Source: an uncultured Rhodospirillaceae bacterium (GTDB lineage Bacteria; Pseudomonadota; Alphaproteobacteria; MPNO01; UBA2964). From it: a DNA stretch of 61,805 bases. Each line of letters opens with the position of its first letter. Position 1 is the stretch's first letter. This document shows positions 13,122-52,149 of this stretch, piece after piece. A model generated the notes under the pieces. It worked only from the letters and a program-made list of their open reading frames with translations. It made no database searches and had not been told where the DNA came from. The translations under genes were made by a program, and so were the position numbers. The stretch covers positions 1 through 61,805 of the forward strand of contig CAJXEC010000003.1 of assembly GCA_913052165.1 (NCBI GenBank), in the 5' to 3' direction.

Positions 13122-14591
13122 TCAACGGTTCGGCGTTCCGATAAATCCGTTCCCATGTCCAATAGACTCAGCAGCCCAACCTCCGGCAACTCGACCAGAG
13201 AATAGAGATGGCCCGAGCATTGTCCCCTCGAGCCCGGCCCGACCATTAATATGACCGCCAGCCATGCCGCAGGCCTCTCCCGCAGCAAACAGTCCAGCAA
13301 TAGGTTCAAAGTGCTTGTTTAACACACGACACTTTTTGTCCGTTTTAATTCCGCCAAAGTTTTTACGGGCGGTGGGAAAAAATTGGATAGCGTAATAGGG
13401 ACCTGTATCGAACTGTTTTGACATCCCGAGGGGCTTGCCGAAGGTGGGTTCTTTATCAAGCCCATCTGAGATCGCTTTGTTGTAGGAAGAAATTTCCCCA
13501 ATAAGGGTTTCCGCAGGAACATCGATTTCCTGGGCTAGCTCTTCAAGAGTGTCTGATTTTTTGATGTAAGGAGAATTCGCCAACAATTCTTCAACCTTTT
13601 CTCTGACAACTTTATCCCCGTCACGATAATATGGATCGGCAATTTCTAGCGTGGCTTTCATGGGCGTGTCTACAATTGCCCAACAATATGGAGGGTCTTG
13701 AGCCAACACCGCAGGGCTCATAGAATTCCCCCCCGACAGCGCCTCATTATGAAACCGCTTTCCTTGTTGGTTAACCCATATATAGCCGGGAATATGACGG
13801 CATACGAGGCCCCGCCTCCCAGTTTGATCTCTGTAATCTGGGGTGGAGTAGCAGTAGAACCACACGTGGTCCATGTGGGTGAGATAACCACCTACCTGTT
13901 CGGCCATTTTATGTCCGTCGCCATTGGAGCCAAATCCAGACCCCTCCATGACCTTAAAACCTTTTAGTTCGGGTCGGACCTCTAACACCATATCAATATT
14001 CGAATTAAAACCACCCGATGTTAGGATTATTACGTCACCCATCACAGATATGGGGTTGCCATTTTGAATATCCGTACCGACAAACCCAACAGCTTTTCCA
14101 TCCTGCATCGTAAGCTTGTCAACCTTAACGTGAGGTATAATTTCGCCACCCTTGTCTTCGTAGGCTTTGATTAAGTGGCGCATTAGTCCCAACCCGTTGC
14201 CCTCGGCGCGGGTCCAGCGCATGACCGAGTTTCCCTCTTGGGGTTTCATATCTACCCATTTGACCCCGTATTGCTCTGCCCAATGGTAAAGATCATGTAA
14301 GGTATGCTCGAGGTAATAGCGTGCCCAAACCTCATCGACAGAAGGTCCGCCCCAAGCCATCCAATCTGCAAAAGCTAGATCAGGTGTATCCTCTATGCCC
14401 TCGGCTTTTTGAACGGGTGATCCTACAATGCAGCACCCGCCACCCGAGATCGCCGCTGCACCACCAGCCTCCTCGCGCTTCTCAAAAGCGATACATCTAG
14501 CGCCTGCATCAAGCGCTTCAATACCTCCCGCGATCCCCGCCGCACCGGCTCCGATAATGGCGACATCCGTTTTATATTCTCTGAAAGCCAT
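13122..14591 (-). CDS. FAD-dependent oxidoreductase (fumarate reductase / KstD / TcuA-like flavoprotein)
   Basis: N-terminal DVAIIGAGAAGIAGG...FEKREEAGG dinucleotide fold. C-terminal GLFAAGEACG...GHINGRAGLEG is typical of this family. Confidence 0.8.
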   Translation of the reverse strand: MAFREYKTDVAIIGAGAAGIAGGIEALDAGARCIAFEKREEAGGAAAISGGGCCIVGSPVQKAEGIEDTPDLAFADWMAWGGPSVDEVWARYYLEHTLHDLYHWAEQYGVKWVDMKPQEGNSVMRWTRAEGNGLGLMRHLIKAYEDKGGEIIPHVKVDKLTMQDGKAVGFVGTDIQNGNPISVMGDVIILTSGGFNSNIDMVLEVRPELKGFKVMEGSGFGSNGDGHKMAEQVGGYLTHMDHVWFYCYSTPDYRDQTGRRGLVCRHIPGYIWVNQQGKRFHNEALSGGNSMSPAVLAQDPPYCWAIVDTPMKATLEIADPYYRDGDKVVREKVEELLANSPYIKKSDTLEELAQEIDVPAETLIGEISSYNKAISDGLDKEPTFGKPLGMSKQFDTGPYYAIQFFPTARKNFGGIKTDKKCRVLNKHFEPIAGLFAAGEACGMAGGHINGRAGLEGTMLGPSLFSGRVAGGWAAESIGHGNGFIGTPNR

Positions 14592-14833
14592 TCTTATCTC
14601 TCTCCCTGATAGCGGTTTTGTGTTTATCTCATTTGCTGCCGTTTAAATATTTCTGTTCGGATGTAAAAAAATTCTTTCTCTTTATTTCTGGTCCGGCACA
14701 ATTTCTAAATAGTCAAAAAAGACGAGTGTCATGTAATATCCAACTTGCTACAGAGTGTATTCATACACAGCTAACCTATACAGTCACTAGTTCGGATTGA
14801 TATTATTTTTAGGGCTTCTATCTGAGGATATTT

Positions 14834-15355
14834 ATGCGTTATTCACTGGGGGGGCAGCACCCCCAAAATATTGATAAAGAAAATTGGATCGCTCCAAGTG
14901 CGGATCTTATCGGTTCTGTGATCCTCTCCGCTAATGTGAGTATATGGTGGCATGCGGTCCTAAGAGCGGATAACGAGCCTATTACTATCGGAGCTCGATC
15001 AAATATTCAGGATGGCTGCGTTTTACATACTGATCCCGGCTATCCAATGGTAATTGGAGAGAATGTTTCTATCGGTCATATGTGCATGCTGCATGGATGT
15101 GAGATTGGTAGTAGCAGTTTGATCGGAATTGGAAGCATTATTTTGAATGGTGCGCGCATTGGTCAGAATTGCCTAATTGGGGCAAATACATTGATTACCG
15201 AAGGGAAAAAGATCCCAGACAATTCTCTTGTGATGGGTTCACCTGGGAAGGTCATCAGGGAGATATCGGATGAACAGATCGAGATGATTGAGAAAAATGC
15301 TGAAAGTTATGTCAATCGGTGGCATCGATATCGAGATGAGTTAGTCGAGAATTAA
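14834..15355 (+). CDS. gamma-carbonic-anhydrase-like / left-handed beta-helix (hexapeptide) protein
   Basis: Hexapeptide repeats (IGARSNIQDGCVLH, IGENVSIGHMCMLHGCEIG, IGIGSIILNGARIG) with conserved His ligands, in a YrdA/PaaY-like layout. Confidence 0.85.
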   Translation: MRYSLGGQHPQNIDKENWIAPSADLIGSVILSANVSIWWHAVLRADNEPITIGARSNIQDGCVLHTDPGYPMVIGENVSIGHMCMLHGCEIGSSSLIGIGSIILNGARIGQNCLIGANTLITEGKKIPDNSLVMGSPGKVIREISDEQIEMIEKNAESYVNRWHRYRDELVEN

Positions 15356-15366
15356 CCTTCCCGCTA

Positions 15367-16167
15367 TCAATTATCTGGATTTTCAATGAGAATTCTCTCT
15401 ATTCTGGGCCAAGCTTCCAACCCTTTCTCAGCCATTAGGTCACAGTAGGCCTGGTTCTTCCAATTAAGGTAAGCATTTGTATAATTTGTTTGTTTTTTAA
15501 TTTTTTCAAACCAAGCCTCAATTTCGGGCCTGTTTGACAGCCAGTTTTCAAGCTTTAACTCATACAGCCTTGTGACATATGGGGTGTAGCCAATATCGGC
15601 GAGTGAGTATGTATCTCCTGCCATCCATTCTGTTTTTTTTAGCTGCTTCTCTAATTTTTCTAAAAATATTTCGAAAGCTAATATAGACTCTCTAAACTGA
15701 GGGGCTTCCAGTCCGAGCTCAATCTGTTGTCTCTGACGTTTGCGCCTTCTGAGGTCGGGAATTCCGCTGAGATACGCCTCGAGTTCATCTTTCGGGCGCG
15801 CTAAATGTTGAAAACGAAATGCTATAGACCCTGAGAGGACACCGGTATGAAAGTGTAAAAACTCGTCAAGCCATTTGGTCCATTGTCTCATCAAGGCCTT
15901 ATTTTCGGGAGCATCCGGCACTAACGACTTTTCTGGATAGGCATCATCCAAATATTCACAAATAACTGTCGACTCGATGATAACATTACCCCCGTCTATT
16001 AGGGTTGGAACGACGCCATTCGGGTTAAGCTTGAGATATTGGGGTTCATGCTGATCTCTTTGGCGTAGGTTTAGGAGGTGACTATTCCAGGCAAGCTCTT
16101 TGTGCTCCAAAACTAATCTTACTTTTTGGGCACAGGTGGACATATCTGCGTGATATAATTGAATCAT
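15367..16167 (-). CDS. glutathione S-transferase family protein
   Basis: Thioredoxin-like N-domain LYHADMSTCAQKVRLVL...LNPNGVVPTLIDGGNVIIESTVICEYLDD, followed by a helical C-domain. Confidence 0.8.
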   Translation of the reverse strand: MIQLYHADMSTCAQKVRLVLEHKELAWNSHLLNLRQRDQHEPQYLKLNPNGVVPTLIDGGNVIIESTVICEYLDDAYPEKSLVPDAPENKALMRQWTKWLDEFLHFHTGVLSGSIAFRFQHLARPKDELEAYLSGIPDLRRRKRQRQQIELGLEAPQFRESILAFEIFLEKLEKQLKKTEWMAGDTYSLADIGYTPYVTRLYELKLENWLSNRPEIEAWFEKIKKQTNYTNAYLNWKNQAYCDLMAEKGLEAWPRIERILIENPDN

Positions 16168-16250
16168 TGCAAATCTCTCTCCTTAGCGCCTTGTCTTTGC
16201 GGTCATGATCCCGATAATAGCGCCTGATATTTAAAAATGGAGTGAAGGGT

Positions 16251-17240
16251 ATGGCCAAATTAACAATTAGTCTCGCTTGCTGCGATTATGACCGAACTCG
16301 GGCTATCTTTGACGGACGGGTTGCAGTTGACGGCTGTGAGGTGGTTTGTTCGTCCATGCCCCCGGAGGAAGCGTTCCATCGCGCATTCAAATACCAGGAA
16401 TTTGATGTCACCGAATTATCTTTCTCTTCTTATATGAATGTGCAATCCAGAGATGGCAGCCCCTACATTGGTATACCTGCTTTTATCTCTCGTCTTTTTC
16501 GTCATTCATCAATTTATATCAGGACAGATCGGGGGATCACGGGACCGGAGGACCTAAAAGGTAAAACGATTGGTGTTCCCGAATATCAGATGACGGCGGC
16601 CATGTGGGTGAGGGGTATTCTCAAGGATGAATATGGGGTTAATCCGGAGGAGTGTCATTGGCGAAATGGTGGATTGGAAGAGGGTGGTCGCGAAGAACGA
16701 GCCCCTCTTCATTTGCCGCCAGAAATAGACCTTCAGTCAATTCCAAAAGATGAGACACTGGCTCAGCATTTGGGAGAGGGTAAACTTGACGCGGTAATAT
16801 CGGCACGAGCTCCCTCCACGTACCACAGTGACCCAAAAATAGATCGCTTATTTCCCGATTATAAAACAGCAGAACAGTCCTATTTCCAAAAAACCCAAAT
16901 GTTTCCGATCATGCATCTAGTTGGGATTAAACGCTCGATTGTTGAGAAACATCCGTGGCTGCCTGTGAATGTCTACAATGCCTTCTTGAAGGCAAAAGAA
17001 ATTTGTTACGAGGAAATGACGGAAGTTGGGCATCTTTATCAAACCACGCCATGGCCAGTTTATGAGCTTGAGCAGGTGAGAAACCTCATGGGAGAGGACC
17101 ATTGGCGATATGGGATCCACGAGAACGCCAGAGAAATCGAGGCAATGACCAGGTACTCATTCGAACAGCATCTCTCAGCCAGAAAGTTGGGCCCTGAGGA
17201 TCTTTTCGCAGAGTCTGTCTTTGAGCTTACCAAACTCTAG
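16251..17240 (+). CDS. PhtD-like / NMT1-fold cytoplasmic protein (paralog 2)
   Basis: MAKLTISLACCDYDRTRAIFDGRVAVDGCEV, EFDVTELSFSSYM, and FPIMHLVGIK. The ATG at 16251 has GAAGGG upstream; the ORF-track GTG at 16242 is less likely. Confidence 0.65.
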   Translation: MAKLTISLACCDYDRTRAIFDGRVAVDGCEVVCSSMPPEEAFHRAFKYQEFDVTELSFSSYMNVQSRDGSPYIGIPAFISRLFRHSSIYIRTDRGITGPEDLKGKTIGVPEYQMTAAMWVRGILKDEYGVNPEECHWRNGGLEEGGREERAPLHLPPEIDLQSIPKDETLAQHLGEGKLDAVISARAPSTYHSDPKIDRLFPDYKTAEQSYFQKTQMFPIMHLVGIKRSIVEKHPWLPVNVYNAFLKAKEICYEEMTEVGHLYQTTPWPVYELEQVRNLMGEDHWRYGIHENAREIEAMTRYSFEQHLSARKLGPEDLFAESVFELTKL

Positions 17241-17263
17241 TTCTAACTCAGGTCTAAATAACG

Positions 17264-17884
17264 TTGACTCGAATACCGCCTCTCAAGAGAGAAGATTATC
17301 CAGATCTGGACGAAAAGTTTTTTAGACCATACGAGGCCTCTCGGGGATACGTACCAAATTCTAATTTAGTGATGGCAAGAAAGCCCAAGGTCTTAGAGGC
17401 GTTTCGCGCTCTCAATGCCGCTATATTTGACTCCAATAATACTATTCCTGCAGCCCTTCTTGCGTTGGTAGGGAACGTTGCTAGTCAGGCGGCGGGTTGT
17501 AACTATTGTGTAGCGCACACCGCGAATAATGCGGTTATACGGGGTGCAGAGGCCAAAAAAATTGCGGCACTTTGGAACTATGAGAAAAGCGAGCTATTCT
17601 CTGATGCGGAGCGCTCCGCACTTCGATTTGCGCAAGCCGCAGCATCTCTTCCTAATATGGTTTCCGACGATGACGTGGCTGACGTCATCTCAAATTTTGG
17701 AGAGGAGGGAGCAACTGAAATTTTAGCTGTCGTCAGCTGGTATGGGTTCCTCAACAGATGGAATGATTCTTTGGCGACCGAGCTCGAGGGTGTTGCTTAT
17801 GAAAAGGCTTCAGAAACACTTTCAGGCACCGATTGGGACCCTGGAAAACATATTCCAAAAGCTCAAAAGCCGGCTGACGCCTAA
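17264..17884 (+). CDS. carboxymuconolactone decarboxylase (AhpD-like) family protein
   Basis: The CNYCVAHT CxxC-type motif sits in an all-helical ~200-aa protein. TTG start with no clear SD, so the start is uncertain. Confidence 0.6.
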   Translation: MTRIPPLKREDYPDLDEKFFRPYEASRGYVPNSNLVMARKPKVLEAFRALNAAIFDSNNTIPAALLALVGNVASQAAGCNYCVAHTANNAVIRGAEAKKIAALWNYEKSELFSDAERSALRFAQAAASLPNMVSDDDVADVISNFGEEGATEILAVVSWYGFLNRWNDSLATELEGVAYEKASETLSGTDWDPGKHIPKAQKPADA

Positions 17885-18753
17885 CATATTCCTAGGTGAG
17901 CCCTTAGTCTTTTTGCGAAGTCGCAATTCCCATCCATCTGCTGGTTCATGATCGTAAAATGATCATGCCCTGCCTCAATGGTGGAGTGGATTTTTACCCC
18001 TTTTGCAGCCCAGCTCGCTGCCATCTCTTCTGTTTGCCTTATGAATTCAGGCCCTTCATCACCCCCCACCGGCAACCATACTTTAGCCTGACACTTTGGC
18101 ACCTGATTGATTGGACTGAAATTAAGAACTTCGTCATCGGAGAGGCTTAGGTCATCGTTCTGTGAGCATAATTGCACCGGTCTAAGGTCATAAAGGCCAC
18201 TTGTGGCAACCGCTGCCTTTAGCGGTGAAGTGGGCATGGCGGGGTCATAACTGGGCCAGTCTGTGGTCAACATGGAGGCTGTGATATGGCCACCAGCGGA
18301 ATGTCCAGAGATTGTGATCTGATCCTGTCGTCCCCCTATCTTTTCAGCGTTTTTCCAAACCCAAGACACAGCTTGTCGACATTGTCGCAGCAGTTCATCC
18401 ATACGAACTTCGGGAATAAGAGTATACTCGCCGATAACTGCAATCGCTCCGAATGGGACTAAAGAGTCCGCAACGTAAGCGGAACTCTCTTTGTCATTTG
18501 ATTTCCAGTAACCACCATGAAAGAAAATGTGTATTGGGAAGGGACCATCTCCTTCCGGGTAATAAATATCTATTGCCTCACGGGGTGTGTCTCCGATACC
18601 GATTTTTAGCTCGCATCGGTACTTCTGACGACATGCGTCCGAGCCTTTCTCTTGATCTCGTTTCAGTTTTTCAACCTCTTTGCATCGACCGCGCGCGTTA
18701 TACCACCAGTCCAGTTCTCCTTGATCGTAGTTTCGATAAATGTTGCTTGCCAC
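17881..18753 (-). CDS. alpha/beta hydrolase (esterase / arylformamidase-like, Abhydrolase_3 type)
   Basis: Oxyanion motif FFHGGYW, nucleophile elbow GHSAGGH, and C-terminal HDHF. Confidence 0.75.
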   Translation of the reverse strand: MASNIYRNYDQGELDWWYNARGRCKEVEKLKRDQEKGSDACRQKYRCELKIGIGDTPREAIDIYYPEGDGPFPIHIFFHGGYWKSNDKESSAYVADSLVPFGAIAVIGEYTLIPEVRMDELLRQCRQAVSWVWKNAEKIGGRQDQITISGHSAGGHITASMLTTDWPSYDPAMPTSPLKAAVATSGLYDLRPVQLCSQNDDLSLSDDEVLNFSPINQVPKCQAKVWLPVGGDEGPEFIRQTEEMAASWAAKGVKIHSTIEAGHDHFTIMNQQMDGNCDFAKRLRAHLGIC

Positions 18754-18809
18754 GGACGCAATCTCCCAGGGTTTGGATTATTTTGACTAATATATAAGCG
18801 TGGCGGCCA

Positions 18810-18835
18810 AGGTCAAAATCGGGAAATATTGACCT
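18810..18835. promoter_or_regulatory. inverted repeat upstream of the NHase-family operon (candidate operator)
   Basis: AGGTCAA-N12-TTGACCT lies 51 nt upstream of the ATG at 18886. The right arm overlaps a possible -35 (TTGACC). Confidence 0.2.
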
Positions 18836-18885
18836 AAGCTCGTAAAATGTGACAATGGGGAGTAAGCTTGAGATTGGAGAAATGA

Positions 18886-19239
18886 ATGGGCCCTAAATTT
18901 ACGAGTGCGTCTGAGCCGGGGCGTGGTTATCACGACATAGGCGGTCTTGATTATGGCGAAGTCGATCCAACAATAACGGAGGTGGCGCCTTGGGAGAAAT
19001 TATCTATCGCCATCGGCAATTCCATGGGTGGGCAAGGTAGAAAAGTCATTAATACTGATATGGGTAGGCGCGCACGAGAAGGTATGGGCGAGGAAATGTA
19101 TAACGAGTTAGCTTATTTTGAGAGAACTACCGAGTCGATGAAGATAACCCTGATTGAACAGGGTCTATTTACTGAGGAGGAACTAGAAGAGCGGATGCAG
19201 GACATTGCCAAAAGGATTTCCGAGGTCCGGGGTCTATGA
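18886..19239 (+). CDS. nitrile hydratase family, beta-subunit N-terminal half as a separate polypeptide
   Basis: YHDIGGLDYGEV, APWEKLSIAI and TDMGRRAREGMGEEMY...YFER match the N-domain of NHase beta, including the conserved Arg region. The stop overlaps the next start (ATGA). Confidence 0.8.
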   Translation: MGPKFTSASEPGRGYHDIGGLDYGEVDPTITEVAPWEKLSIAIGNSMGGQGRKVINTDMGRRAREGMGEEMYNELAYFERTTESMKITLIEQGLFTEEELEERMQDIAKRISEVRGL

Positions 19240-19523
19240 GCCAGTTATTTGGTATTGGTGATATTGTCAGAGTGATTGATGCACATCCTCCAGGTCATCG
19301 AAGGACGCCATATTATTGTCGGGGTAAGAAAGGAAAAATCGAGCGAGTTTGTGGGGAGCATAGAAACCCAGAAGAGCTTGCATATGGCTTCGATGGAAAA
19401 CCTCTGAGGCGTCTGTATCGGGTTAGGTTTAACCAGTCGGATATTTGGGGACATTATGATGGACCCACTCAAGACACTATCGACATTGACATTTATGAGC
19501 ATTGGCTTAGGTCAGCGGAATAA
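19236..19523 (+). CDS. nitrile hydratase family, beta-subunit C-terminal (SH3-like) half as a separate polypeptide
   Basis: GDIVRVIDAHPPGHRRTPYYCRGKKGKIERV ... LYRVRFNQSDIWG ... IDIYEHWL matches the NHase beta C-domain. GAGG SD lies ~11 nt upstream. Confidence 0.8.
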   Translation: MSQLFGIGDIVRVIDAHPPGHRRTPYYCRGKKGKIERVCGEHRNPEELAYGFDGKPLRRLYRVRFNQSDIWGHYDGPTQDTIDIDIYEHWLRSAE

Positions 19524-19535
19524 AAGGGCACTACA

Positions 19536-20234
19536 ATGACGAATGAAACTGAAAAACAGGAACCTGATCATGGTCATAGTCATGGTGACCTCGATGCGGA
19601 TGCACATGCACTTGAACACATTCATGACCACGATCGTCAGTTTCAGCCGGATCTCGAGGATACTCCGCCAACGCGCTACGAGCTGATGGTCTATGCGATC
19701 CGAGAATTGCTGATTGAAAAAGGTCATGTCACTCAAGAAGAAATAACCAAAGCACGAAATACGCTCGAGAGTTGGCAGCCATCACGGGGTGCCGAAATTG
19801 TAGCTCGTGCCTGGACAGATCCCGACTTCAAGAAAAGGCTGCTCACTGATGGTAATGAGGCAATGGCAGATTTCGGGGTGGATGCGGGAGGCGCAAAGCT
19901 AACAGTTTTAGAAAATACAGACGAGGTACAAAATGTAGTCGTTTGTACACTGTGTTCCTGCTATCCCAGAGCGGTGCTTGGGTTGCCACCAGATTGGTAT
20001 AGGTCAAAGGCATATCGGGCGAGAGTCGTCGTCGAACCTCGGAAAGTCTTGAAAGAATTCGGCACCGAAATCCCCGACGAGGTAACCGTTAGGGTTCACG
20101 ATAGCCTGGCAGATCTGCGTTACCTGGTCATACCAAAAAGACCTGCTGGGACGGAAGATTGGAGCCAAGAACAACTTGCCGAAATTGTCACAAGAGACAG
20201 TATGGTTGGAGTAACGAATCCAAAGGCTCTGTGA
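19536..20234 (+). CDS. nitrile hydratase family alpha subunit, cobalt-type metal site, with His-rich N-terminal extension
   Basis: VVVCTLCSCYPRAVLGLPPDWYRS (CTLCSCY at nt 19944-19964) is the Co-type claw-setting motif. RAWTDPDFKKRLL and LRYLVIPKRPAGTEDWS are also present. N-terminus reads EKQEPDHGHSHGDLDADAHALEHIHDHD. Confidence 0.9.
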   Translation: MTNETEKQEPDHGHSHGDLDADAHALEHIHDHDRQFQPDLEDTPPTRYELMVYAIRELLIEKGHVTQEEITKARNTLESWQPSRGAEIVARAWTDPDFKKRLLTDGNEAMADFGVDAGGAKLTVLENTDEVQNVVVCTLCSCYPRAVLGLPPDWYRSKAYRARVVVEPRKVLKEFGTEIPDEVTVRVHDSLADLRYLVIPKRPAGTEDWSQEQLAEIVTRDSMVGVTNPKAL

Positions 20235-20261
20235 TAGAATTATTAAATAAGGAGAGCCTCT

Positions 20262-22598
20262 ATGCCTGATGGACATTTTGGCGGGTCACTCGTCCGGCTA
20301 GAAGATGAAGAATTACTGGTCGGCTCAGCCAAGTATATTGATGATATAAAACCCGCTGGTGTATTGCATGCCTGCTTTGCAAGAAGTTCGTATCCTCACG
20401 CTTTATTAAACAAAGTTGACCTCGCGGCAGCGCGTCTAAAGCCTGGGGTTGTTGCGGCGTATACCATAGATGACCTGGTTGATGTCTTGACCACTGACAG
20501 GATTCCGGAGACCTTTCCTAAACCCCAGCCGCGCGAAGAATATGGGCCTTATGTCCTGGCTCGTGACGAGGTTTGCTACGTTGGAGAGCCCGTTGCAATC
20601 GTTATAGCGAATACTCGATATGAGGCTGAGGATGCGGCTGCCTCGATCGAGATTGAATATGATCCCCTCGATTCGGTAACAGATTGCATGCGAGGGGCAT
20701 ATGAAGGTTCCCCATCAGTAGATACCAGACAAAATACAAATGTTTTTAGTTCTGTGGAATTAGCATTCGGTGATACCGATGCGGGATTTAACTCATCCAT
20801 GCATTCAGTAAAAGAGACCTTCCGGCAACATCGAGGTGTTGCTTCATCAATGGAGTGCCGGGGTGGCGTGGCCAATTTTGATCCTGTAAGAAAAAAAATT
20901 ACGATGTGGGCCTCTTGCCAGCAACCGCATGGCCATAAGGCAATTATTGTTGATCTCTTCGGTGTTAACGAGGATCAGGTCAGGGTCCTAGTGCCAAATT
21001 TGGGTGGTGGATTTGGGCCAAAGTTAAATTTTTATCCTGAAGATGGGGCAATTATCGCGTCCAGTATTAAGCTGGGCCGTCCCGTAAAATGGATAGAAGA
21101 TCGTCGCGAGCATCTTCTCACCACGACCCAGGAGCGAGATCAAATATGGGAGGTCGAGCTAGCCGCAAAACCTGATGGTACGCTTGTAGGTCTTCGAGGG
21201 AGCCTCTATCACGATCAAGGTGCCTATACAGTGAGAGGAACCAACATTCCATTTAGCGCAGCGACAACGATTTTAGGTCCTTATATTCTCCCCAATTACA
21301 GAATGGATGTTAAGGTAGTTCACACAAATAAGGTGCCTTCAACGTCAATGCGAGGCGCAGGCCATCCTCAAGGCAATTTCGTAATGGAACGTCTCTTGGA
21401 TAGAATGGCTGACGAACTTGGGATCGATCGCGCAGAAATTCGCGCCCATAATATGATCTCGTCGAAGCAAATGCCTTACGAACAACCTCTAAAAACACAA
21501 GCAGGGCAACCAATCATTTATGACAGCGGGGACTATCTGGCTTGTCAAAATAATTTAATGAGAGAACTCGCGTATTCTGAATTTCCTGAAAAGAAAAAAT
21601 CTGCGCAAATAGAGGGTCGCCATATTGGATTGGCTATTGCAAATTACGTAAAACCAACCGGTCGGGGCCCGTTTGAAAGTGGGCTTGTTAGGATAGGAAC
21701 TTCTGGACAGGTATCGGTATACACTGGTGCCGTTGCAATGGGCCAAGGTTTTCGGACAGCGATGAGCCAACTGGCGGCCGAACAACTCGGAATTAAACCG
21801 AGTGAAGTGAATTTTATTTCTGGAGATACAGATACTATCAGTCACGGTATTGGGGGGTTCGCTAGCAGGCAAACTGTCTGCGCAGGCTCAGCTATTCATC
21901 AAGCGTCTCTTAAGGTGCGTGCGAAGGTCATTTCGGTCGCGGCGCATTTGCTCGAGGCCTCTGAAGAAGACCTAGAATTAAAAGACGGCTGTGTATTTGT
22001 TAAGGGAGTTGAGGACCTATCAGTAGGTTTTAGAGAAATAGCGAATTCGGTAGCTGGAATTCCTGGGGTTTCTCTTCCTGAGGGGATTTCGGCTGGGCTG
22101 GAGGCTAAAGTTGATTTTAAACCCGACAACGTCACATATGCGAATGGTGCGCACGGGTGTGAGGTAGAAGTGGACCCCGAGACAGGCCGAGTAACTATCC
22201 TGCGTTACGTAGTTGTCCATGATAGCGGTCGTTTAGTGAACCCACTTATCGTTGATGGTCAAGTTCACGGAGCTGTCACTCTCGGTTTGGGTCATGCCTT
22301 TTACGAAGAAATGATGTACGATCAAGAAGGACAACCTCTTAGCACCAATCTTGCCGAGTATCTAATACCAACGGCGTGCGAAGTACCAAACTTTGAAATC
22401 ATCCATCATGTATCTCCGACTGACCGAAATCCAATTGGAGTTAAGGGGGTGGGGGAGTGTGGGGTCATGGCATCCATGCCGGTTCTTCTTGCCGCGGTTG
22501 AAAATGCCCTCAGCCCTTTTCATGTAAAACTCAACGCTTATCCTGTAACTCCGTCAATGATAGTGGAAAAAGTTCGGGCGGGCACAAACTTGGACTAG
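20262..22598 (+). CDS. xanthine dehydrogenase / aldehyde oxidase / CoxL-family molybdopterin-binding large subunit (no partner subunits nearby)
   Basis: 778 aa. a/b-hammerhead N-terminus (LVRLEDEELLVGSAKYIDD), then GGGFGPK, SMRGAGHPQGNFVMERLLD, and C-terminal GVKGVGECG with the catalytic Glu. Confidence 0.85.
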   Translation: MPDGHFGGSLVRLEDEELLVGSAKYIDDIKPAGVLHACFARSSYPHALLNKVDLAAARLKPGVVAAYTIDDLVDVLTTDRIPETFPKPQPREEYGPYVLARDEVCYVGEPVAIVIANTRYEAEDAAASIEIEYDPLDSVTDCMRGAYEGSPSVDTRQNTNVFSSVELAFGDTDAGFNSSMHSVKETFRQHRGVASSMECRGGVANFDPVRKKITMWASCQQPHGHKAIIVDLFGVNEDQVRVLVPNLGGGFGPKLNFYPEDGAIIASSIKLGRPVKWIEDRREHLLTTTQERDQIWEVELAAKPDGTLVGLRGSLYHDQGAYTVRGTNIPFSAATTILGPYILPNYRMDVKVVHTNKVPSTSMRGAGHPQGNFVMERLLDRMADELGIDRAEIRAHNMISSKQMPYEQPLKTQAGQPIIYDSGDYLACQNNLMRELAYSEFPEKKKSAQIEGRHIGLAIANYVKPTGRGPFESGLVRIGTSGQVSVYTGAVAMGQGFRTAMSQLAAEQLGIKPSEVNFISGDTDTISHGIGGFASRQTVCAGSAIHQASLKVRAKVISVAAHLLEASEEDLELKDGCVFVKGVEDLSVGFREIANSVAGIPGVSLPEGISAGLEAKVDFKPDNVTYANGAHGCEVEVDPETGRVTILRYVVVHDSGRLVNPLIVDGQVHGAVTLGLGHAFYEEMMYDQEGQPLSTNLAEYLIPTACEVPNFEIIHHVSPTDRNPIGVKGVGECGVMASMPVLLAAVENALSPFHVKLNAYPVTPSMIVEKVRAGTNLD

Positions 22599-22601
22599 AC
22601 A

Positions 22602-23153
22602 ATGGCTCGTTTTCCTAAAATTGATCCTGAAAATATGGAGGATAAACAAAAACGTGTAAGCGATGCGATTGCAGGCGGCCCCCGGGGGAGTGTTAGGGGG
22701 CCATTCCATGCACTTCTTTACGCGCCGGATGTTGCAGACCTAGTCCAGGCTCTTGGTGCTCACGTGCGCTACTCGATCTCGATACCTTGGTCACTTCGCG
22801 AGATTGCCATCCTAGTTACAGCTAAGCACTGGAATGCCCAATATGAATGGTATGCGCATGAAAAAGAGGCACAAAAAGCGGGCACTGATCAAGCCATTAT
22901 AGACGCGATCCGTGAGGGTAGACGTCCAGATTTTACGCCAGATCAATCTGCTGAGGCCGACATTTATGCATTTGCTACTGAGCTTTATGAAAATCGTTCG
23001 ATTAGCGATGCTACCTTCGATAAAATCTCGAATGCCTATGGTAAAGAGGGTGCCATCGAACTAGTCGCCCTAATGGGGCATTACAACGTAATTGCAATGA
23101 CGTTGAACGTAGCGGAAGTAGAAGTTCCAGGTGGAGATCGCCCCCTGGGTTAA
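22602..23153 (+). CDS. carboxymuconolactone decarboxylase (AhpD-like) family protein
   Basis: The motif AKHWNAQYEWYAHEKEAQKAG is typical of the CMD family. It starts 3 nt after the Mo-subunit stop. Confidence 0.7.
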   Translation: MARFPKIDPENMEDKQKRVSDAIAGGPRGSVRGPFHALLYAPDVADLVQALGAHVRYSISIPWSLREIAILVTAKHWNAQYEWYAHEKEAQKAGTDQAIIDAIREGRRPDFTPDQSAEADIYAFATELYENRSISDATFDKISNAYGKEGAIELVALMGHYNVIAMTLNVAEVEVPGGDRPLG

Positions 23154-23242
23154 TCAAGCAGTAAGACCAGATTTTATTGCGGCGTTTATTGTAATGTCGG
23201 AAACGGTATTCGTTCGCAATTCGGTTGGGGCATCACATTTAC

Positions 23243-24106
23243 TTAAAAAGTCGCGCCTGAGTTTCTCCAGGCGTTTATGATTTCGGATCCTGTTGCGAAC
23301 CAAACTTTTTCGTGGCTGGCAATATGATCCAAAATAGATTCGAGGACCCAAAACCTATGGGACACACCGATAACAAATGGGTGGATCGCGATTGCCATAA
23401 CTCTTCCGGAAGTCTCTCCTTCCATGTAAAGCCTATCGAAAGCGGCTTTTCCCATGGCTTCGAATTCTTCATTAGACCGCCCAGCTCTAAATTGGGGTAG
23501 GTCATTGATTTCCGCTGTATAGGGAAGGCTTATTAGTTGCTTACCATTTACTTCCATAAAATATGGTTGGTCATCATTAACCCAATCTCCGACATACTCA
23601 ATTCCTTCGGAAGCCAAGTAGTCTAGAGTATCCCATGTTTCTGACATGCCCGATCCTAGCCAACCCTTGGGCCGGACCCCGGTGGTTTCTGTAATTCTAC
23701 GCAGGGCATCATGAATAACCTGTTGTTCAGTCTCTGGCGGAATATCGTGAAGTCGCCGGGTATTTGATTGGTTGTGCCCCAGAAATTCCCAATCAAGGGC
23801 CATGGCATCTTCCATAATTTCTGGATAGACGTCACAGACCTCAGAATTCAAAGTCACAGAACCCCTAATATTTCGTTTGGAGAGCGCATCCATTATGCGA
23901 AACACACCTACTCGGGCACCATAATCACGTTGTGAAAAATGTTGAACCTCCGGTATTTTTCTATCGCCGATAATTTTTTCATCGAGCGCGAAACTCTCAA
24001 TATTGGGGATTACCCAAACAGCTACGTGAGCCCCATTGGGCCATTTTAATTTTGGCCGCCGATTTATTGGTGTGTAGGGAAATGGTCCGTATTTTCGCGG
24101 TTCCAT
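23243..24106 (-). CDS. polysaccharide deacetylase-fold hydrolase (PuuE-allantoinase-like)
   Basis: KWPNGAHVAVWVIPNIESF, DYGARVGVFRIMDAL, and EFLGHNQSN follow the pattern of PuuE-type deacetylase-fold amidohydrolases. Confidence 0.7.
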   Translation of the reverse strand: MEPRKYGPFPYTPINRRPKLKWPNGAHVAVWVIPNIESFALDEKIIGDRKIPEVQHFSQRDYGARVGVFRIMDALSKRNIRGSVTLNSEVCDVYPEIMEDAMALDWEFLGHNQSNTRRLHDIPPETEQQVIHDALRRITETTGVRPKGWLGSGMSETWDTLDYLASEGIEYVGDWVNDDQPYFMEVNGKQLISLPYTAEINDLPQFRAGRSNEEFEAMGKAAFDRLYMEGETSGRVMAIAIHPFVIGVSHRFWVLESILDHIASHEKVWFATGSEIINAWRNSGATF

Positions 24107-24114
24107 TTTCTATC

Positions 24115-24813
24115 TTATTCCTGGTTATGGCGCCGGTTTAATTCATCAACTATTTCCTCAACGTGCATTACGTCCGCATACTTGTGGTGCATGTCAAATA
24201 AATTCATTTTATGCGTATCTATGTACCGATCAAAACATCCCTCTTCCGCCAGGGTGACGTGGATACCATTGGAATATGCATCAAGCACAGTAGCTCGAAC
24301 ACAACCTGATGTGCTCTCCCCACAGACGATCACACTGTCTACATCCATTTGGTTTAACTGAGCAATTAAGGGTGTGCCATAGAACGCGCTTGCCCGCTGT
24401 TTATACACCATCAGGTCACCGGGCTCTGGAGCGAATTCTTCCTGTATTTCCCACACCTCGTCAGAGCGTTCAACCTTTTGCCTGTTGGTCGCGTAAGCAG
24501 CAGCAATGTTGGCATCCTTACGTGATTCCGTAGTCGAGTAGATCACTGGAATCCCTGCTTGGCGACAAGCGGTAAAGAGGCTTTGGAGATGAGGGATTGC
24601 GTTCCAAGCATTTTCCCCACAAGAGCTTGGGTACCTATCGATGATCTCATTGACTGGTTTTGCTCCTCCTTGAAAAGCAAGTTTATAAAGGTCTATGGCA
24701 AGCAAAGCGGGACGCTTTCCAACGTAGGTGACCCGCTCGTAGGCGGCATAAATCTGCAACGCTTTTGGATCAACTAAATCCTGCCAACAATGATCTTCAA
24801 ATTTCGAAACCAA
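24115..24813 (-). CDS. isochorismatase-family cysteine hydrolase (amidase type)
   Basis: PALLAIDLYK supplies the Asp, and VIVCGESTSGCVRATVLDA supplies the nucleophile Cys. This is the same family as nicotinamidase, N-carbamoylsarcosine amidase and NicF. Confidence 0.8.
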   Translation of the reverse strand: MVSKFEDHCWQDLVDPKALQIYAAYERVTYVGKRPALLAIDLYKLAFQGGAKPVNEIIDRYPSSCGENAWNAIPHLQSLFTACRQAGIPVIYSTTESRKDANIAAAYATNRQKVERSDEVWEIQEEFAPEPGDLMVYKQRASAFYGTPLIAQLNQMDVDSVIVCGESTSGCVRATVLDAYSNGIHVTLAEEGCFDRYIDTHKMNLFDMHHKYADVMHVEEIVDELNRRHNQE

Positions 24814-24928
24814 GGCACTCTCCTTAAAATTTGAACTCGACAGTATTACAGGCCTCGAAACTGTTCAACGGTTGTGCTTACGCAGCTGAAAGATCTTGTA
24901 CTGAATAATCCAGCGGACAGAAGCCGGG

Positions 24929-25415
24929 GACAGATACGGAGGTATCGAAGACTTGGAAGTGTTCCAATAAGGTGTGTGCTATTTGTCTTGGTGGTATCGA
25001 AATGACACTGACCCACGGTCCTGTTGATCCTGACGAAGCCACTGCGGAGGCAGATGAGCGTTAGATGAGGGGATGAAATTTATCGATACCTCTAATGCTC
25101 TGGGGCTGGAAAAAATGTTTCGGTCGGGGAAACGGTCGGTGCGATAGCAAGGTTGGTTGAGGTCGGTAAAGTGCGCCGGTTAAACCTCTCTGAGGCGGGA
25201 GAGGAGGCCATTGATCGGACTAATGCCACCCATAGTATTATGGCAATCCAAACTGGGTGCCCTCTCTGAATAAGGTTTGTCGGGGATCAAATACTAATTT
25301 TCCGTAGAGATTTGATATTGGTGTTGTCGGTTATTTTCCACTCCGCCGCGAGAGACTAACTGGTGCTTTGGCTAGGGCTGATAGTTTGCCCGAGAATGAA
25401 CCTAGCCGCTTCAGG
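24929..25415 (+). pseudogene. aldo/keto reductase remnant (frameshifts, stops, internal deletion, 3' truncation)
   Basis: AKR-like pieces occur in three frames: DRYGGIEDLEV; VCAICLGGIEMTLTHGPVDPDEATA; MKFIDTSNALGLEKMF; LVEVGKVRRLNLSEAGEEAIDRTNATHSIMAIQTGCPL; FDIGVVGYFPLRRERLTG...PSRF. About 80 aa of the middle and the last ~90 aa are absent. Confidence 0.8.
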
Positions 25416-25422
25416 ACGGTAG

Positions 25423-26217
25423 TCATAAAAGTAGCTCATCGATAGAGGGATGCATGGATGTCGCTTGGCTAATTTCACTCGGGAGATTTGTCAAAGAATT
25501 AAGTTGCCAATGCTGTTCGATAAAAGGACTATTTTTCGGTTTTCTCGATTGGGTGATGTTGAACACTTTGTTAAAAATTTGACTCCATTCAAAAAGATGA
25601 GGTGAGGCCCCAGCGAGGAGGTCTGGCAACCAACCTATTCTCGTCAATTCGATACAATCAATCGAGACGCGCAATAGCTTGGAATGTGCGTAAGGATGAG
25701 CGATCATCAAAACTGATGCCTTGCCGCTAGCTGCATGATTGGCAAGCGGTAATAAAACCAATTCAGCTGTCTCCCCACCCCATGGTCCAGCCTTTTCAAC
25801 TCTGAAATCCATCAGCCTTTCAGTAAACTCAAAGTCCATACCCGACAGCTTATTGCAGGCTTGCCGAAGTTTAGTCATGTAATCGGGATCACGATAAACG
25901 ATCCGATACTCATTACCTGTCGCCGTGCTTGCGAAACCCGATAGCTGCTGCAACTCAAATTTCGGGTCAAAGTTGTTGGGGTCTGATAAAAGGGTTGGTA
26001 AATTTCCGAATACCGACCAAAATTGAGAGCTTGAAAGTGGTGTTTCCAAGACCATCCGGAAATGTTGGAAGTGAAATAAACCCTTTTCGTCGGGTAGGCT
26101 CCTCCGTTTTTGATCAATCCATAGTTTAAGGGGGTTCCAGGTGGGCCTTCTTACATTGTTATCAGAGTTTTCTCTAACAAAAGCGTCGCAATGCTCTGTA
26201 GAATCTGTGTTAGACAT
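25423..26217 (-). CDS. hypothetical protein, no family recognised
   Basis: Uninterrupted 264-codon ORF on the strand of the neighbouring typA, with no TM segment or signal peptide. I cannot place it in any family from sequence alone. Confidence 0.55.
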   Translation of the reverse strand: MSNTDSTEHCDAFVRENSDNNVRRPTWNPLKLWIDQKRRSLPDEKGLFHFQHFRMVLETPLSSSQFWSVFGNLPTLLSDPNNFDPKFELQQLSGFASTATGNEYRIVYRDPDYMTKLRQACNKLSGMDFEFTERLMDFRVEKAGPWGGETAELVLLPLANHAASGKASVLMIAHPYAHSKLLRVSIDCIELTRIGWLPDLLAGASPHLFEWSQIFNKVFNITQSRKPKNSPFIEQHWQLNSLTNLPSEISQATSMHPSIDELLL

Positions 26218-26364
26218 AATACAAACGATATTTCAATTCTTTTTGTCAGAGAGCTACAGAATGGCTTCTTGCTCTGACCAGTTAAAAAAACAGTATGAGT
26301 GAGGCACAGTTAACGAAAAGATGCTGCAGTTAATTTATCGCGACTTAAAAAGAGCGTCTTACGG

Positions 26365-28218
26365 CTAATTGGTACCAATAGCCATTCTGCGCGCCGCTCT
26401 CTTCCGCTCGTTGGGATCAAGAAATCTTTTGCGTAATCTAATTGCATTGGGTGTTACCTCGACAAGCTCATCCTCGGCGATGTATGAAATAGCACGTTCG
26501 AGCGTCATTTTGATGGGTGGAGTAAGAAGTATATTTTCATCCGAACCCGCGGCTCTGATATTCGTAAGTTGCTTCGCTTTAAGGGGGTTAGCTTCTAAAT
26601 CTTGGCCTTTATTATGTTCCCCGATTAACATTCCACCGTATACATCGGTCCCCGGGGAGACAAAAAGGGCACCCCGGTCTTCTAAATTCCACAGAGCATA
26701 GGCAACAGCTTTGCCCCGGCTTATGGAGATTATTACACCGTGGTGACGTCCATCTATATGACCTCTGTTGGGAGAGTATTCATGAAACATTCTGTTCATA
26801 ACCCCAGTGCCATGTGTATCCGTAAGAAATTCTCCATGATAACCAATTAGGGCTCTGGAGGGCGCATGGAAAACCAATCTTTGCTTTCCGCCGCCGGAAG
26901 GGCGCATTTCGCGTAACTCGCCGCGACGTGCTCCAAGTTTTTCGACTACCACTCCTGAATATTGCTCGTCGACATCGATGGTAACTTCTTCAATGGGTTC
27001 TAATCTGGCCCCAGAGTCGGGATCTTCTCGATATACCACTCTAGGGCGACTGATGGAGAGTTCATATCCTTCTCTTCTCATAGTTTCCACCAAAACCGCT
27101 ATCTGCAATTCGCCGCGTCCCGCGACCTCGAAGCCGTTTCCATCAGGTTGATCAGAGATGTGAATTGCTACATTGCCCTCGGACTCACGCATTAGTCGGT
27201 CCCGGATCATCCGAGAGGTAACTTTATCTCCGTCCTGTCCTGCCAATGGGGAGTCGTTGATTGAAATCGTTACCGCTAGGGTCGGTGGGTCGATAGGTCT
27301 AGCCTCGAGGGCTTGTGTAACGCCGGCGTCACAGATCGTATCTGCCACCGTAGCTTTTGGAAATCCAGCCAAAGCGACAATGTCGCCAGACGAAGCTTCC
27401 TCCAACGGCACACGTTCCAAACCTCGGAAGGCGAGTATTTTTGTGACGCGAGCCTGTTCGATTTTATGTCCGTCGCGGGAGAGTGCGATTGCGTTAGTAT
27501 TCGCTTTGATCGTGCCACTATCTACACGACCCGTTAATAGTCTACCGAGGTAGGGGTCTGACTCTAAGGTCGTGGCCAGCATTTTGAATGGAGCATTAAG
27601 TTGTATATCTGGTGCGGGCACATGGCCTATAATCAAGTCAAAAAGAGGCTGAAGGTCATTCCCTGGATGGTTCGGGTCTTCCCCCATCCAGCCTTGCTTA
27701 CTTGAGCCGTAAAGCACCGGAAAGTCGAGTTGGAATTCATCCGCATCTAGGGCCGCAAACAAGTCAAATATTTCATCGAGGACTTCGTCGGGTCTTGCAT
27801 CCGACCTGTCCACTTTATTTATGATTACAATAGGCCTTAAACCAAGCCCTAAAACTTTGGACAAAACAAATTTGGTTTGAGGCATTGGCCCCTCGGCTGC
27901 GTCCACCAGTAACAGGCAGCCATCCACCATCGAAAGAATTCGTTCTACCTCACCTCCAAAGTCGGCGTGACCAGGAGTGTCAACTATATTTATTCGAGTA
28001 TCTCCCAGCTCTATGGAGGTGCATTTAGCTAAAATTGTTATGCCACGCTCCCTTTCAAGATCATTGGAATCCAGTGCTTGTTCAGGAACTTTTTGGTTTT
28101 CTCTAAATTGCCCTGATTGCCGGAGCATGCAGTCGACGGTAGTGGTTTTTCCGTGGTCCACATGAGCGACGATAGCAATGTTCCTTAGCTGTTCAATATG
28201 CATTGGCGGCGCGTTCAT
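26365..28218 (-). CDS. typA: translational GTPase TypA/BipA
   Basis: NIAIVAHVDHGKTT, DTPGHADFGGEVER, NKVDR, and a full EF-G-like domain set ending in the BipA-specific C-terminal domain. 617 aa. Confidence 0.95.
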   Translation of the reverse strand: MNAPPMHIEQLRNIAIVAHVDHGKTTTVDCMLRQSGQFRENQKVPEQALDSNDLERERGITILAKCTSIELGDTRINIVDTPGHADFGGEVERILSMVDGCLLLVDAAEGPMPQTKFVLSKVLGLGLRPIVIINKVDRSDARPDEVLDEIFDLFAALDADEFQLDFPVLYGSSKQGWMGEDPNHPGNDLQPLFDLIIGHVPAPDIQLNAPFKMLATTLESDPYLGRLLTGRVDSGTIKANTNAIALSRDGHKIEQARVTKILAFRGLERVPLEEASSGDIVALAGFPKATVADTICDAGVTQALEARPIDPPTLAVTISINDSPLAGQDGDKVTSRMIRDRLMRESEGNVAIHISDQPDGNGFEVAGRGELQIAVLVETMRREGYELSISRPRVVYREDPDSGARLEPIEEVTIDVDEQYSGVVVEKLGARRGELREMRPSGGGKQRLVFHAPSRALIGYHGEFLTDTHGTGVMNRMFHEYSPNRGHIDGRHHGVIISISRGKAVAYALWNLEDRGALFVSPGTDVYGGMLIGEHNKGQDLEANPLKAKQLTNIRAAGSDENILLTPPIKMTLERAISYIAEDELVEVTPNAIRLRKRFLDPNERKRAARRMAIGTN

Positions 28219-34418: not shown

Positions 34419-34429
34419 AACTTCTTTTT

Positions 34430-52038: not shown

Positions 52039-52149
52039 ATTTTGTTACAGGATTTGAATATACAACAACACAAGACTTTAGGGGTGATTTTTAGATACCG
52101 ATGATCTATGTCACTCTATCGAGTGTAACTACAATGGGTGATATTTAAA

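Follow-up and report, generated by a model that had tools for sequence, protein, structure and literature searches.

Nitrile hydratases (NHases) are major industrial biocatalysts; those of the cobalt type have a bound Co(III) and Cys-sulfinate and Cys-sulfenate ligands. The C-(T/S)-L-C-S-C motif forms the metal claw of the α subunit, its Thr...Tyr variant being the cobalt type, and two conserved arginines of the β subunit hydrogen-bond the oxidised cysteines. To our knowledge, almost all that is known about NHases comes from two-subunit, activator-dependent enzymes. Among the other NHase gene organisations described is that of thiocyanate hydrolase (SCNase), a three-subunit NHase-family enzyme with a split β (PMC7193024). 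Likewise, the toyocamycin NHase (TNHase; ToyJKL) of Streptomyces rimosus consists of three subunits and acts on a cyano-N-heterocycle (PMC12648386). The fused NHase of Monosiga brevicollis has no known activator and carries a His-rich stretch just before its α domain (PMC2603476, PMC7193024). Here we describe a five-gene locus in a 61,805-nucleotide (nt) stretch of DNA from an uncultured Rhodospirillaceae bacterium (GenBank assembly GCA_913052165.1, contig CAJXEC010000003.1), the whole of which is referred to as the window. The first three genes are predicted to encode a cobalt-type, three-polypeptide NHase without an activator gene that belongs to a distinct and widespread clade. They are followed by genes for a molybdenum (Mo) subunit of the XOR/CoxL family and a probable carboxymuconolactone decarboxylase (CMD)-family protein. 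This marine operon points to an uncharacterised oceanic route for the degradation of some N-containing nitrile or amide.

Architecture of the locus and its NHase

The locus comprises the following genes:

18886-19239, + strand: NHase βN, 117 aa (PF21006 NHase_beta_N, E 1.6e-14)
19236-19523, + strand: NHase βC, 95 aa, SH3-like (PF02211 NHase_beta_C, E 7.4e-22)
19536-20234, + strand: Co-type NHase α, 232 aa (PF02979 NHase_alpha, E 3.4e-80)
20262-22598, + strand: XOR/CoxL-family Mo subunit, 778 aa (Ald_Xan_dh_C, MoCoBD_1 and MoCoBD_2, E 1e-23 to 1e-79)
22602-23153, + strand: probable CMD-family protein, 183 aa, last gene of the operon (CMD only, E 0.005, 17.2 bits)

A first-pass annotation of this DNA, made from the sequence alone, had described a tight operon of five same-strand genes, and our analysis recovered the same arrangement. 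The spacings between consecutive genes are −4, 12, 27 and 3 nt, and the block is bounded by a divergent gene upstream and a convergent gene downstream. The βN and βC genes are joined by the annotated ATGA overlap (ATG at 19236-19238, TGA at 19237-19239), and the GAGG Shine-Dalgarno (SD) sequence of βC lies at 19222-19225, 10 nt 5' of its start. A scan for an intrinsic terminator at the operon end yielded no clear candidate, with 13 terminator-like sites versus 8.6 ± 2.9 expected by chance and the best hairpin falling within the coding region of the convergent PuuE-like gene. The metal claw of α reads VCTLCSCY at residues 136-143, and the two conserved β arginines, as had been proposed, sit on separate polypeptides when βN and βC are aligned to solved β chains. 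GRRARE of βN aligns with the Arg of YRHGIE in the solved NHase β 4fm4 (alignment spanning residues 3-95 of that chain), and GHRRTPYYCRG of βC aligns with GHTRMPRYTRG of the Co-NHase β 3qxe (residues 131-218).

The α subunit is ~50-57 % identical to canonical α subunits. It passes TIGR01323, the NCBIfam equivalog model for NHase α (261.2, cut-off 249.85), and stays below the SCNase-γ equivalog TIGR03887 (214.5, cut-off 291.45). Among solved structures it scores 197-236 bits with Co-NHases, ~196 bits with Fe-NHases and 183 bits with SCNase γ. The claw and the residues that follow it read C137-T-L-C140-S-C142-Y143-P144-R145, and CSCYPR is invariant in 120/120 of the closest α homologs. Arg145 (YPRA) takes the place of the pocket Trp of canonical Fe- and Co-NHases, which read YPW(P/S) here. 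An exhaustive search of 1.84 billion representatives returned 3475 α relatives; among the 150 nearest, fusions of the βN-α or β-α type are numerous. Position 145 is hypervariable across this wider radiation; invariance within the clade and hypervariability beyond it suggest that the residue may be a specificity determinant.

Related loci, numbered L007 to L042, were compared with the window, and α subunits were placed in a neighbour-joining tree with 100 bootstraps, which included four canonical, accessory-bearing references and left out SCNase γ and ToyJ. The α subunits of split loci formed a clade of 14 leaves, all with YPR, from which the four canonical references were excluded in 100/100 bootstraps; the α studied here thus falls outside the canonical Co-NHases. 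The α subunits of loci that also carry the Mo subunit gene (CoxL-linked loci) were monophyletic (89/100 bootstraps). The enzyme is not a routine αβ NHase; the first-pass annotation had already set it apart from routine aliphatic NHases.

No accessory or activator gene was found in the split loci examined, while one is annotated in 4/4 canonical reference loci. In the operon itself there is no room for an activator open reading frame (ORF), as the CoxL-type gene starts 27 nt after α. The N-terminal tail of α is rich in His and Asp (residues 12-32, HDHDHD type; residues 1-35 are encoded at 19536-19640), and the α subunits examined from eight split-β loci contain 6-16 His in their first 45 residues. 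Because 4-5 His also open two of the four canonical α sequences, the idea of the tail as a diagnostic replacement for an activator was tempered, and the feature is taken as suggestive, not diagnostic. In L011 and L036 the cluster includes genes for the cobalt transporter CbtA/CbtB, and L017 has a 242-aa ORF in the CbtA position. The CbtA/CbtB genes lend support to the predicted use of cobalt by the NHase.

The split of the β subunit is ancient and family-wide. Of 114 βN homologs, 114 are stand-alone halves of 99-147 aa, and the same split is present on 21 independent contigs encoding the same α. It is kept in marine relatives whose α is only 71-77 % identical, and it persists in other phyla and where βN identity has fallen to 46 %. 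The βN-βC-α layout also occurs in a Hyphomicrobiales metagenome-assembled genome (MAG) and in three further metagenomic genomes, and eight βN-βC-α loci besides the window, from Alphaproteobacteria and Streptomyces, share the 4-nt βN/βC overlap (L007, L009, L011, L013, L033, L034, L036 and L037), by which translation of the two halves would be coupled. The first-pass annotation had named unsplit β genes in close relatives as the sign of a recent frameshift, and the close relatives proved to carry the split form. A recent frameshift or assembly artefact in an ordinary β gene has in its favour only that the two halves abut; set against the 21 contigs, the distant relatives, the 114 stand-alone βN proteins and the canonical start codon and SD that precede βC, this origin was rejected and has next to no probability.

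Plasmids of cultured strains of Streptomyces, Planktothrix and Rhizobium carry split β genes as well; Rhizobium has the order βC-α-βN, and Planktothrix also has a split form other than βN-βC-α. In all, 20 plasmid records from nine genera carry such a half gene, and the cultured carriers of the split clade include Rhizobium, Agrobacterium, Azospirillum, Burkholderia, Streptomyces and Planktothrix. A split β, which had been taken as the hallmark of SCNase and ToyJKL, is accordingly not specific to these enzymes; it is the mark of a large clade, mostly unstudied, with members in cultured genera.

Some loci of this clade show further peculiarities. L035 (8054-10939) encodes a 316-aa βN-α fusion, three tandem βN paralogs (106, 105 and 99 aa), a βC and a second α, with a further βN gene at the locus end and MetE-like (Meth_synt_2) genes and three EamA transporters in the flanks. 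In L034 (3828-6590), four tandem 157-aa ORFs with a spacing of 763 nt and no Pfam match lie just upstream of the split-β NHase. Split-β NHases without CoxL (L037, a Streptomyces plasmid; L042, a Rhizobium plasmid; L013, 3046-3765) repeatedly adjoin an aquaporin/MIP gene and a Ni/Co transporter of the HoxN, CbtAB or HupE type, so that the substrate or product of these NHases may be a small neutral compound.

SCNase, which converts SCN- to COS and NH3, shares the three-polypeptide architecture and the CTLCSC cobalt claw. The scn genes of Thiobacillus thioparus are ordered βN-βC-α, as here, an anion could be bound by the pocket Arg, and JGI labels a 75 %-identical α homolog (P0120) as thiocyanate hydrolase subunit gamma. 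Against these resemblances, α misses the SCNase-γ threshold but passes the NHase-α model and scores higher with solved Co- and Fe-NHases (196-236 bits) than with SCNase γ. The βN protein has no match to SCNase β at E ≤ 0.01, and βC reaches 36.7 bits with SCNase versus 53 with Co-NHase β. There are no activator, COS or sulfur-oxidation genes, and the genes conserved around the operon encode amide and ring hydrolases. SCNase identity was rejected on the model thresholds and the lack of detectable βN similarity, and thiocyanate, one of the substrates considered in the first-pass annotation, is a very improbable one. The JGI label is probably one instance of a systematic mis- or under-annotation of the split clade: JGI names most βN homologs "hypothetical protein", and PGAP names the halves "nitrile hydratase" or "SH3-like domain-containing protein".

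The lone Mo subunit and its linkage to the NHase

The 778-aa protein combines an a/b-hammerhead domain with two Moco-binding domains (PF01315, PF02738 and PF20256). Its best solved relatives, over the full length, are CoxL of M. smegmatis (8uem, 476 bits), 6-hydroxypseudooxynicotine dehydrogenase (Kdh; 7dqx, 445 bits) and quinoline 2-oxidoreductase (Qor; 1t3q, 421 bits), while purine XDHs score about 163 bits. The protein resembles the N-heterocycle hydroxylases Kdh and Qor as closely as it does CoxL. The catalytic Glu (GVGECG, aligned with 8uem and 7dqx) and the CQQPH region are kept, and judged by these residues the subunit looks catalytically intact. Form I CoxL has an active-site Cys loop of the VAYRCSFR type that binds Cu. 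In the window protein this CO dehydrogenase (CODH) loop is replaced by SMRGAGHPQG (compared with M. smegmatis CoxL), and the protein scores below the CODH models NF040766 (685, cut-off 950) and TIGR02416 (496, cut-off 991), as it does for every NCBIfam equivalog cut-off. Its identification as a CODH was therefore rejected.

The first-pass annotation had called the Mo subunit an orphan, and no ORF with a CoxS-type 2Fe-2S motif was indeed found in the 61.8-kb window, nor within ±10 kb of any NHase-linked locus. As a positive control, the same motif scan detected CoxS beside the large-subunit (L) gene of L022 and L023 and of almost every relative of ≤31 % identity (loci L022-L032). Pfam annotation of 50 ORFs from the window likewise showed no Fer2_2 or FAD_binding_5 protein. 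Other lone L genes were observed. The window contains a second gene for an XOR-family Mo large subunit (53084-56044, + strand; 986 aa), to the C-terminus of which a CoxG/SRPBCC domain (residues 827-962) is fused. An α/β-hydrolase gene lies on either side (52138-53070 and 56031-56855), and the second of these overlaps the L gene by 14 nt. Genes for iron-sulfur (FeS) and FAD subunits are again lacking nearby. A 47 %-identical CoxL relative in a betaproteobacterial groundwater MAG (L019, 6515-8881) is also a lone L gene, with a UbiD decarboxylase, a family-III CoA-transferase and TctC as neighbours. This recurrence of lone L genes favours S and M subunits that are shared in trans, and most simply the FeS and FAD subunits would be encoded elsewhere in the genome.

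Species-representative genomes searched with the 778-aa protein yielded 18 loci. When the window proteins were mapped onto the loci, all CoxL relatives of ≥61 % identity were seen to follow βN-βC-α directly, with an α-CoxL gap of 12-52 nt; these are L015, L016, L007/8, L009/10, L017, L018 and L011/12, plus L036. Relatives at 45-47 % identity occur without the NHase, L022 and L023 among them carrying an adjacent CoxS. The Mo subunit is thus co-conserved with the NHase in ~7-8 marine lineages, down to 61 % CoxL and 71 % α identity, and a lack of such co-conservation would have spoken against the operon as first proposed. The NHase-linked loci all come from marine MAGs labelled Rhodospirillaceae or Pseudomonadota. 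The converse does not hold, as the split NHase also occurs without CoxL (L013, L033-L035 and the Streptomyces, Planktothrix and Rhizobium loci). No cultured carrier of the CoxL-linked form was found: all genome matches were MAGs, and the best plasmid match to CoxL was 43 % identical.

The fifth protein had been described as CMD/AhpD-like. Its assignment to the CMD family is probable: NCBI and JGI name its orthologs carboxymuconolactone decarboxylase family, and many family members have a precomputed PF02627 match; the window protein itself scores 17.2 bits against PF02627 (cut-off 23 bits), and its profile retrieved only Bmp8 from the PDB (E 0.19). The AhpD-like part of the description does not stand, as there is no CxxC. 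The protein contains zero cysteines and its orthologs have no conserved Cys, and an AhpD-type peroxidase was rejected on this ground. Residues invariant among the orthologs are H76, Y81-E82-W83, H86 and E89.

Conserved neighbours and proposed function

The operon is flanked by the following features:

16242-17240 (likely ATG at 16251), + strand: 4,5-dihydroxyphthalate-decarboxylase (PhtD) homolog, periplasmic-binding-protein (PBP) fold (PDB 9jp7, E 2e-92, full length)
17264-17884, + strand: second CMD-family protein, 206 aa, with a GCNYCVAH CxxC motif (PF02627, E 1.4e-9; TIGR01926, 51 bits)
17881-18753, − strand: α/β-hydrolase fold-3 esterase/amidase, 290 aa (BD-FAE and Abhydrolase_3)
18811-18834, no strand: palindrome GGTCAA-N12-TTGACC in the divergent spacer between the esterase and βN genes
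23243-24106, − strand: PuuE-allantoinase-like polysaccharide-deacetylase-fold hydrolase, 287 aa (TIGR03212, 136.6 bits, below cut-off)
24115-24813, − strand: isochorismatase-family cysteine hydrolase, 232 aa (PF00857, E 2.8e-32)

Four of these genes accompany the operon in all CoxL-linked lineages. The PhtD-like gene is the best-conserved gene of the neighbourhood (77-98 % identical), and the esterase gene lies directly upstream and divergent in every CoxL-linked locus (42-92 % identity). The PuuE-like gene, convergent with the operon, is 65-97 % identical, and its product matches 1z7a (E 3e-27) and PuuE 3cl6 (E 3e-23) in the PDB. The isochorismatase-family gene is 70-96 % identical. Its best PDB matches are N-carbamoylsarcosine amidohydrolase (E 1.5e-24) and 3ot4/3uao; the protein is NicF-like, and its TSGCVRAT Cys motif aligns. 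In contrast to these four, the 206-aa CxxC CMD protein (peroxidase-related/YciW-like) is an accessory, which the window shares with L007, L009, L015 and L016 but which L011, L017 and L018 lack. Some lineages also have an aldehyde dehydrogenase, an NMT1-like protein and CbtAB. The outer flanks vary, with a sulfatase, an MFS protein and a histidine kinase in L009, a secretin in L011 and TctA in L017; BipA lies near the locus in the window, L007, L017 and L018.

A promoter scan of the divergent spacer gave TTGACC-16-GACAAT on the + strand (18829-18856) and TTGACC-16-TATATT on the − strand (18816-18789). Across eight lineages GGTCAAA is invariant and TTGAC is kept except in L007, in a spacer that averages 53 % identity. 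The palindrome could be two back-to-back −35-like boxes or a shared operator. No Rfam match to a riboswitch or other RNA was obtained at E ≤ 1 across 14000-26500.

Catabolic genes are densely packed in the window as a whole, which forms a catabolic island encoding TauD, pirin, HpaB, a KynB-like cyclase, MmgE/PrpD, UbiD, an EutA-like protein, an extradiol dioxygenase, FAA hydrolase, dienelactone hydrolase and TctA. A DMSO-reductase-family molybdopterin oxidoreductase of 773 aa is encoded at 1778-4099 (+ strand). A second PBP-fold protein (331 aa), with weak NMT1/Phosphonate-bd matches like those of the PhtD-like gene, lies in 33423-35458 (− strand) next to a second ornithine-cyclodeaminase/mu-crystallin gene (342 aa). 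Another gene of the latter family is found at 9245-10246, and one lies upstream of the PhtD-like gene in L017.

The reading that we favour, with about an even chance in our estimate, is that the module serves the catabolism of a polar N-containing (hetero)aromatic nitrile or carboxamide for C and N acquisition. The NHase (βN, βC and α) would convert the nitrile to the amide, and the isochorismatase-family amidase would convert the amide to the acid and NH3. Decarboxylation could then be catalyzed by the PhtD-like enzyme and/or a CMD protein, and the Mo subunit, with 2Fe-2S and FAD subunits supplied from another locus, would hydroxylate the ring next to N. The PuuE-like hydrolase and the esterase might finally open the ring hydrolytically. 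The cyano-N-heterocycle suggested by the first-pass annotation would fit the conserved neighbours, namely the amidase, the aromatic-acid decarboxylase homolog and the PuuE-like hydrolase.

Several observations weigh against this catabolic reading. No FeS or FAD partner that would allow turnover of the Mo subunit was located. The fifth (CMD) gene is missing in L007/L008, and its ~50 % relatives occur in hydrolase-rich clusters without a Mo enzyme; an obligate partnership with the Mo subunit was rejected for these reasons, and the gene is best seen as a catabolic accessory, e.g., a decarboxylase or isomerase. Sister split-β NHases adjoin aquaporins and Ni/Co transporters, a hint of small neutral substrates, and adjacent genes in a dense catabolic island need not share a pathway. 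Furthermore, all CoxL-linked loci come from one family-level MAG clade and several keep BipA, so the synteny may partly reflect inheritance rather than selection. Taken further, this last point would mean that the NHase and the Mo subunit serve separate pathways, are neighbours in a catabolic island through shared ancestry only, and owe their conserved order to no function. Such a view would account for the single marine MAG clade, for BipA staying nearby in the window and three related loci, for the unrelated catabolic genes that pack the window, and for the occurrence of the split NHase without CoxL (L013, L033-L035) and of 45-47 % CoxL relatives without the NHase. However, the α-CoxL gap has stayed at 12-52 nt on the same strand despite divergence to 71 % (α) and 61 % (CoxL) identity, the outer flanks have been reshuffled (L009, L011 and L017), and no promoter-sized gap separates the five genes. 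We regard adjacency by ancestry alone as a real alternative, though an unlikely one.

Two other substrates were considered. The NHase might serve detoxification or N scavenging, its substrate being a small and polar nitrile or a pseudohalide such as HCN, cyanamide or cyanate, with the Mo subunit oxidizing the small amide or aldehyde-like product, e.g., formamide. The conserved Arg in place of the hydrophobic pocket Trp would suit such a substrate, as would the coupling of sister split-β loci to an aquaporin and a Co/Ni transporter and little else, and aldehyde oxidoreductases are known within the XOR family. A C1 substrate would, however, make no use of the co-conserved aromatic-acid decarboxylase homolog, PuuE-like hydrolase and carbamoyl-amidase, and the CoxL-linked loci contain no aquaporin, so that this explanation appears distinctly unlikely. 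A more specific version of the favoured catabolic reading is the salvage or catabolism of a 7-cyano-7-deazapurine of the preQ0 or toyocamycin type. As in ToyJKL, the NHase would form the 7-carboxamide, the amidase would yield the 7-carboxylate and the PhtD-like enzyme would decarboxylate it, after which a purine-type Mo hydroxylase and the PuuE-like hydrolase would open the ring. This scheme assigns each conserved enzyme class to a chemically sensible step; PuuE-type enzymes act on a purine-derived ring, and ToyJKL is the only characterised three-subunit NHase that acts on an organic nitrile (PMC12648386). Yet neither the 50 window ORFs nor the related loci showed a queuosine or deazapurine gene (QueC/D/E/F, Tgt or nucleoside hydrolase), no preQ1 riboswitch was detected, and the Mo subunit is nearer to CoxL, Kdh and Qor (421-476 bits) than to purine XDHs. 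A deazapurine is therefore an improbable substrate.

Of equally low probability, in our estimate, is a bolder form of the catabolic reading, in which the NHase complex and the lone Mo subunit would constitute a Co and Mo two-metalloenzyme unit for an unrecognised oceanic cyano- or carboxamido-N-heterocycle, the Mo subunit operating without FeS and FAD subunits of its own. The L subunit might then be reoxidised directly, by an unconventional partner or while docked to the NHase. If true, such a unit would represent both a new NHase substrate class, for which the pocket Arg would select, and a new way for a Mo hydroxylase to operate.

A literature search returned nothing on an NHase-Mo-hydroxylase operon, in agreement with the first-pass annotation, and nothing on lone coxL genes or on the split clade as such. 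The clade is large, phylogenetically separate and uncharacterised, with three subunits, no activator gene and Arg in place of Trp, and its cultured members make direct study possible. The link to a marine operon offers a handle on which natural nitrile or amide widespread planktonic bacteria consume, and the locus provides a case for how an XOR-family large subunit works without accompanying FeS and FAD genes. Annotation is also affected, as β halves are labelled "hypothetical" or "SH3-like" and α is sometimes labelled "thiocyanate hydrolase γ".

Comparison with known systems

Canonical Co-NHases, such as those of Pseudonocardia thermophila, Bacillus/Geobacillus, Pseudomonas putida and Rhodococcus rhodochrous J1, share with the locus the α fold, the VCTLCSCY claw and both β arginines, and an association with cobalt transporters (CbtAB, HupE) is common to both. 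They differ in having a single β of about 210-230 aa, compared with 117 + 95 aa here, an accessory gene (4/4 reference loci), which is lacking here, and a Trp (YPWP) where the window α has an Arg (YPRA). The βN protein is also very divergent, with a best score of 25 bits against solved β chains. The Monosiga NHase has its subunits fused in one chain, whereas three polypeptides are encoded here, but its His-rich linker precedes the α domain at the position occupied by the α tail in the window, a tail that is also found outside these groups. As in Monosiga, a His-rich segment precedes the α domain in many of the closest 50 %-identity α representatives, which are βN-α or β-α fusions.

SCNase of Thiobacillus thioparus (PDB 2dd4) has the split β, the three subunits and the Co claw seen here; it differs in possessing an activator gene and in its genomic context. 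The CoxL-group Mo hydroxylases (Kdh, Qor and form-I CODH) have the same L-subunit domain architecture, catalytic Glu and Gln region as the Mo subunit of the window. In L022, L023 and the ≤31 % relatives, genes for the S (2Fe-2S) and M (FAD) subunits are adjacent, while none are adjacent here, and the Mo subunit described here is without the CODH Cys loop and is always preceded by NHase α.

ToyJKL resembles the NHase of the window in its three-subunit architecture. A split member of the YPR clade is carried by a Streptomyces plasmid (L037), and no deazapurine biosynthesis gene is found among the neighbours in the window or related loci. ToyJKL belongs to a deazapurine antibiotic biosynthetic cluster, whereas the operon described here lies in a catabolic cluster, beside a Mo hydroxylase.

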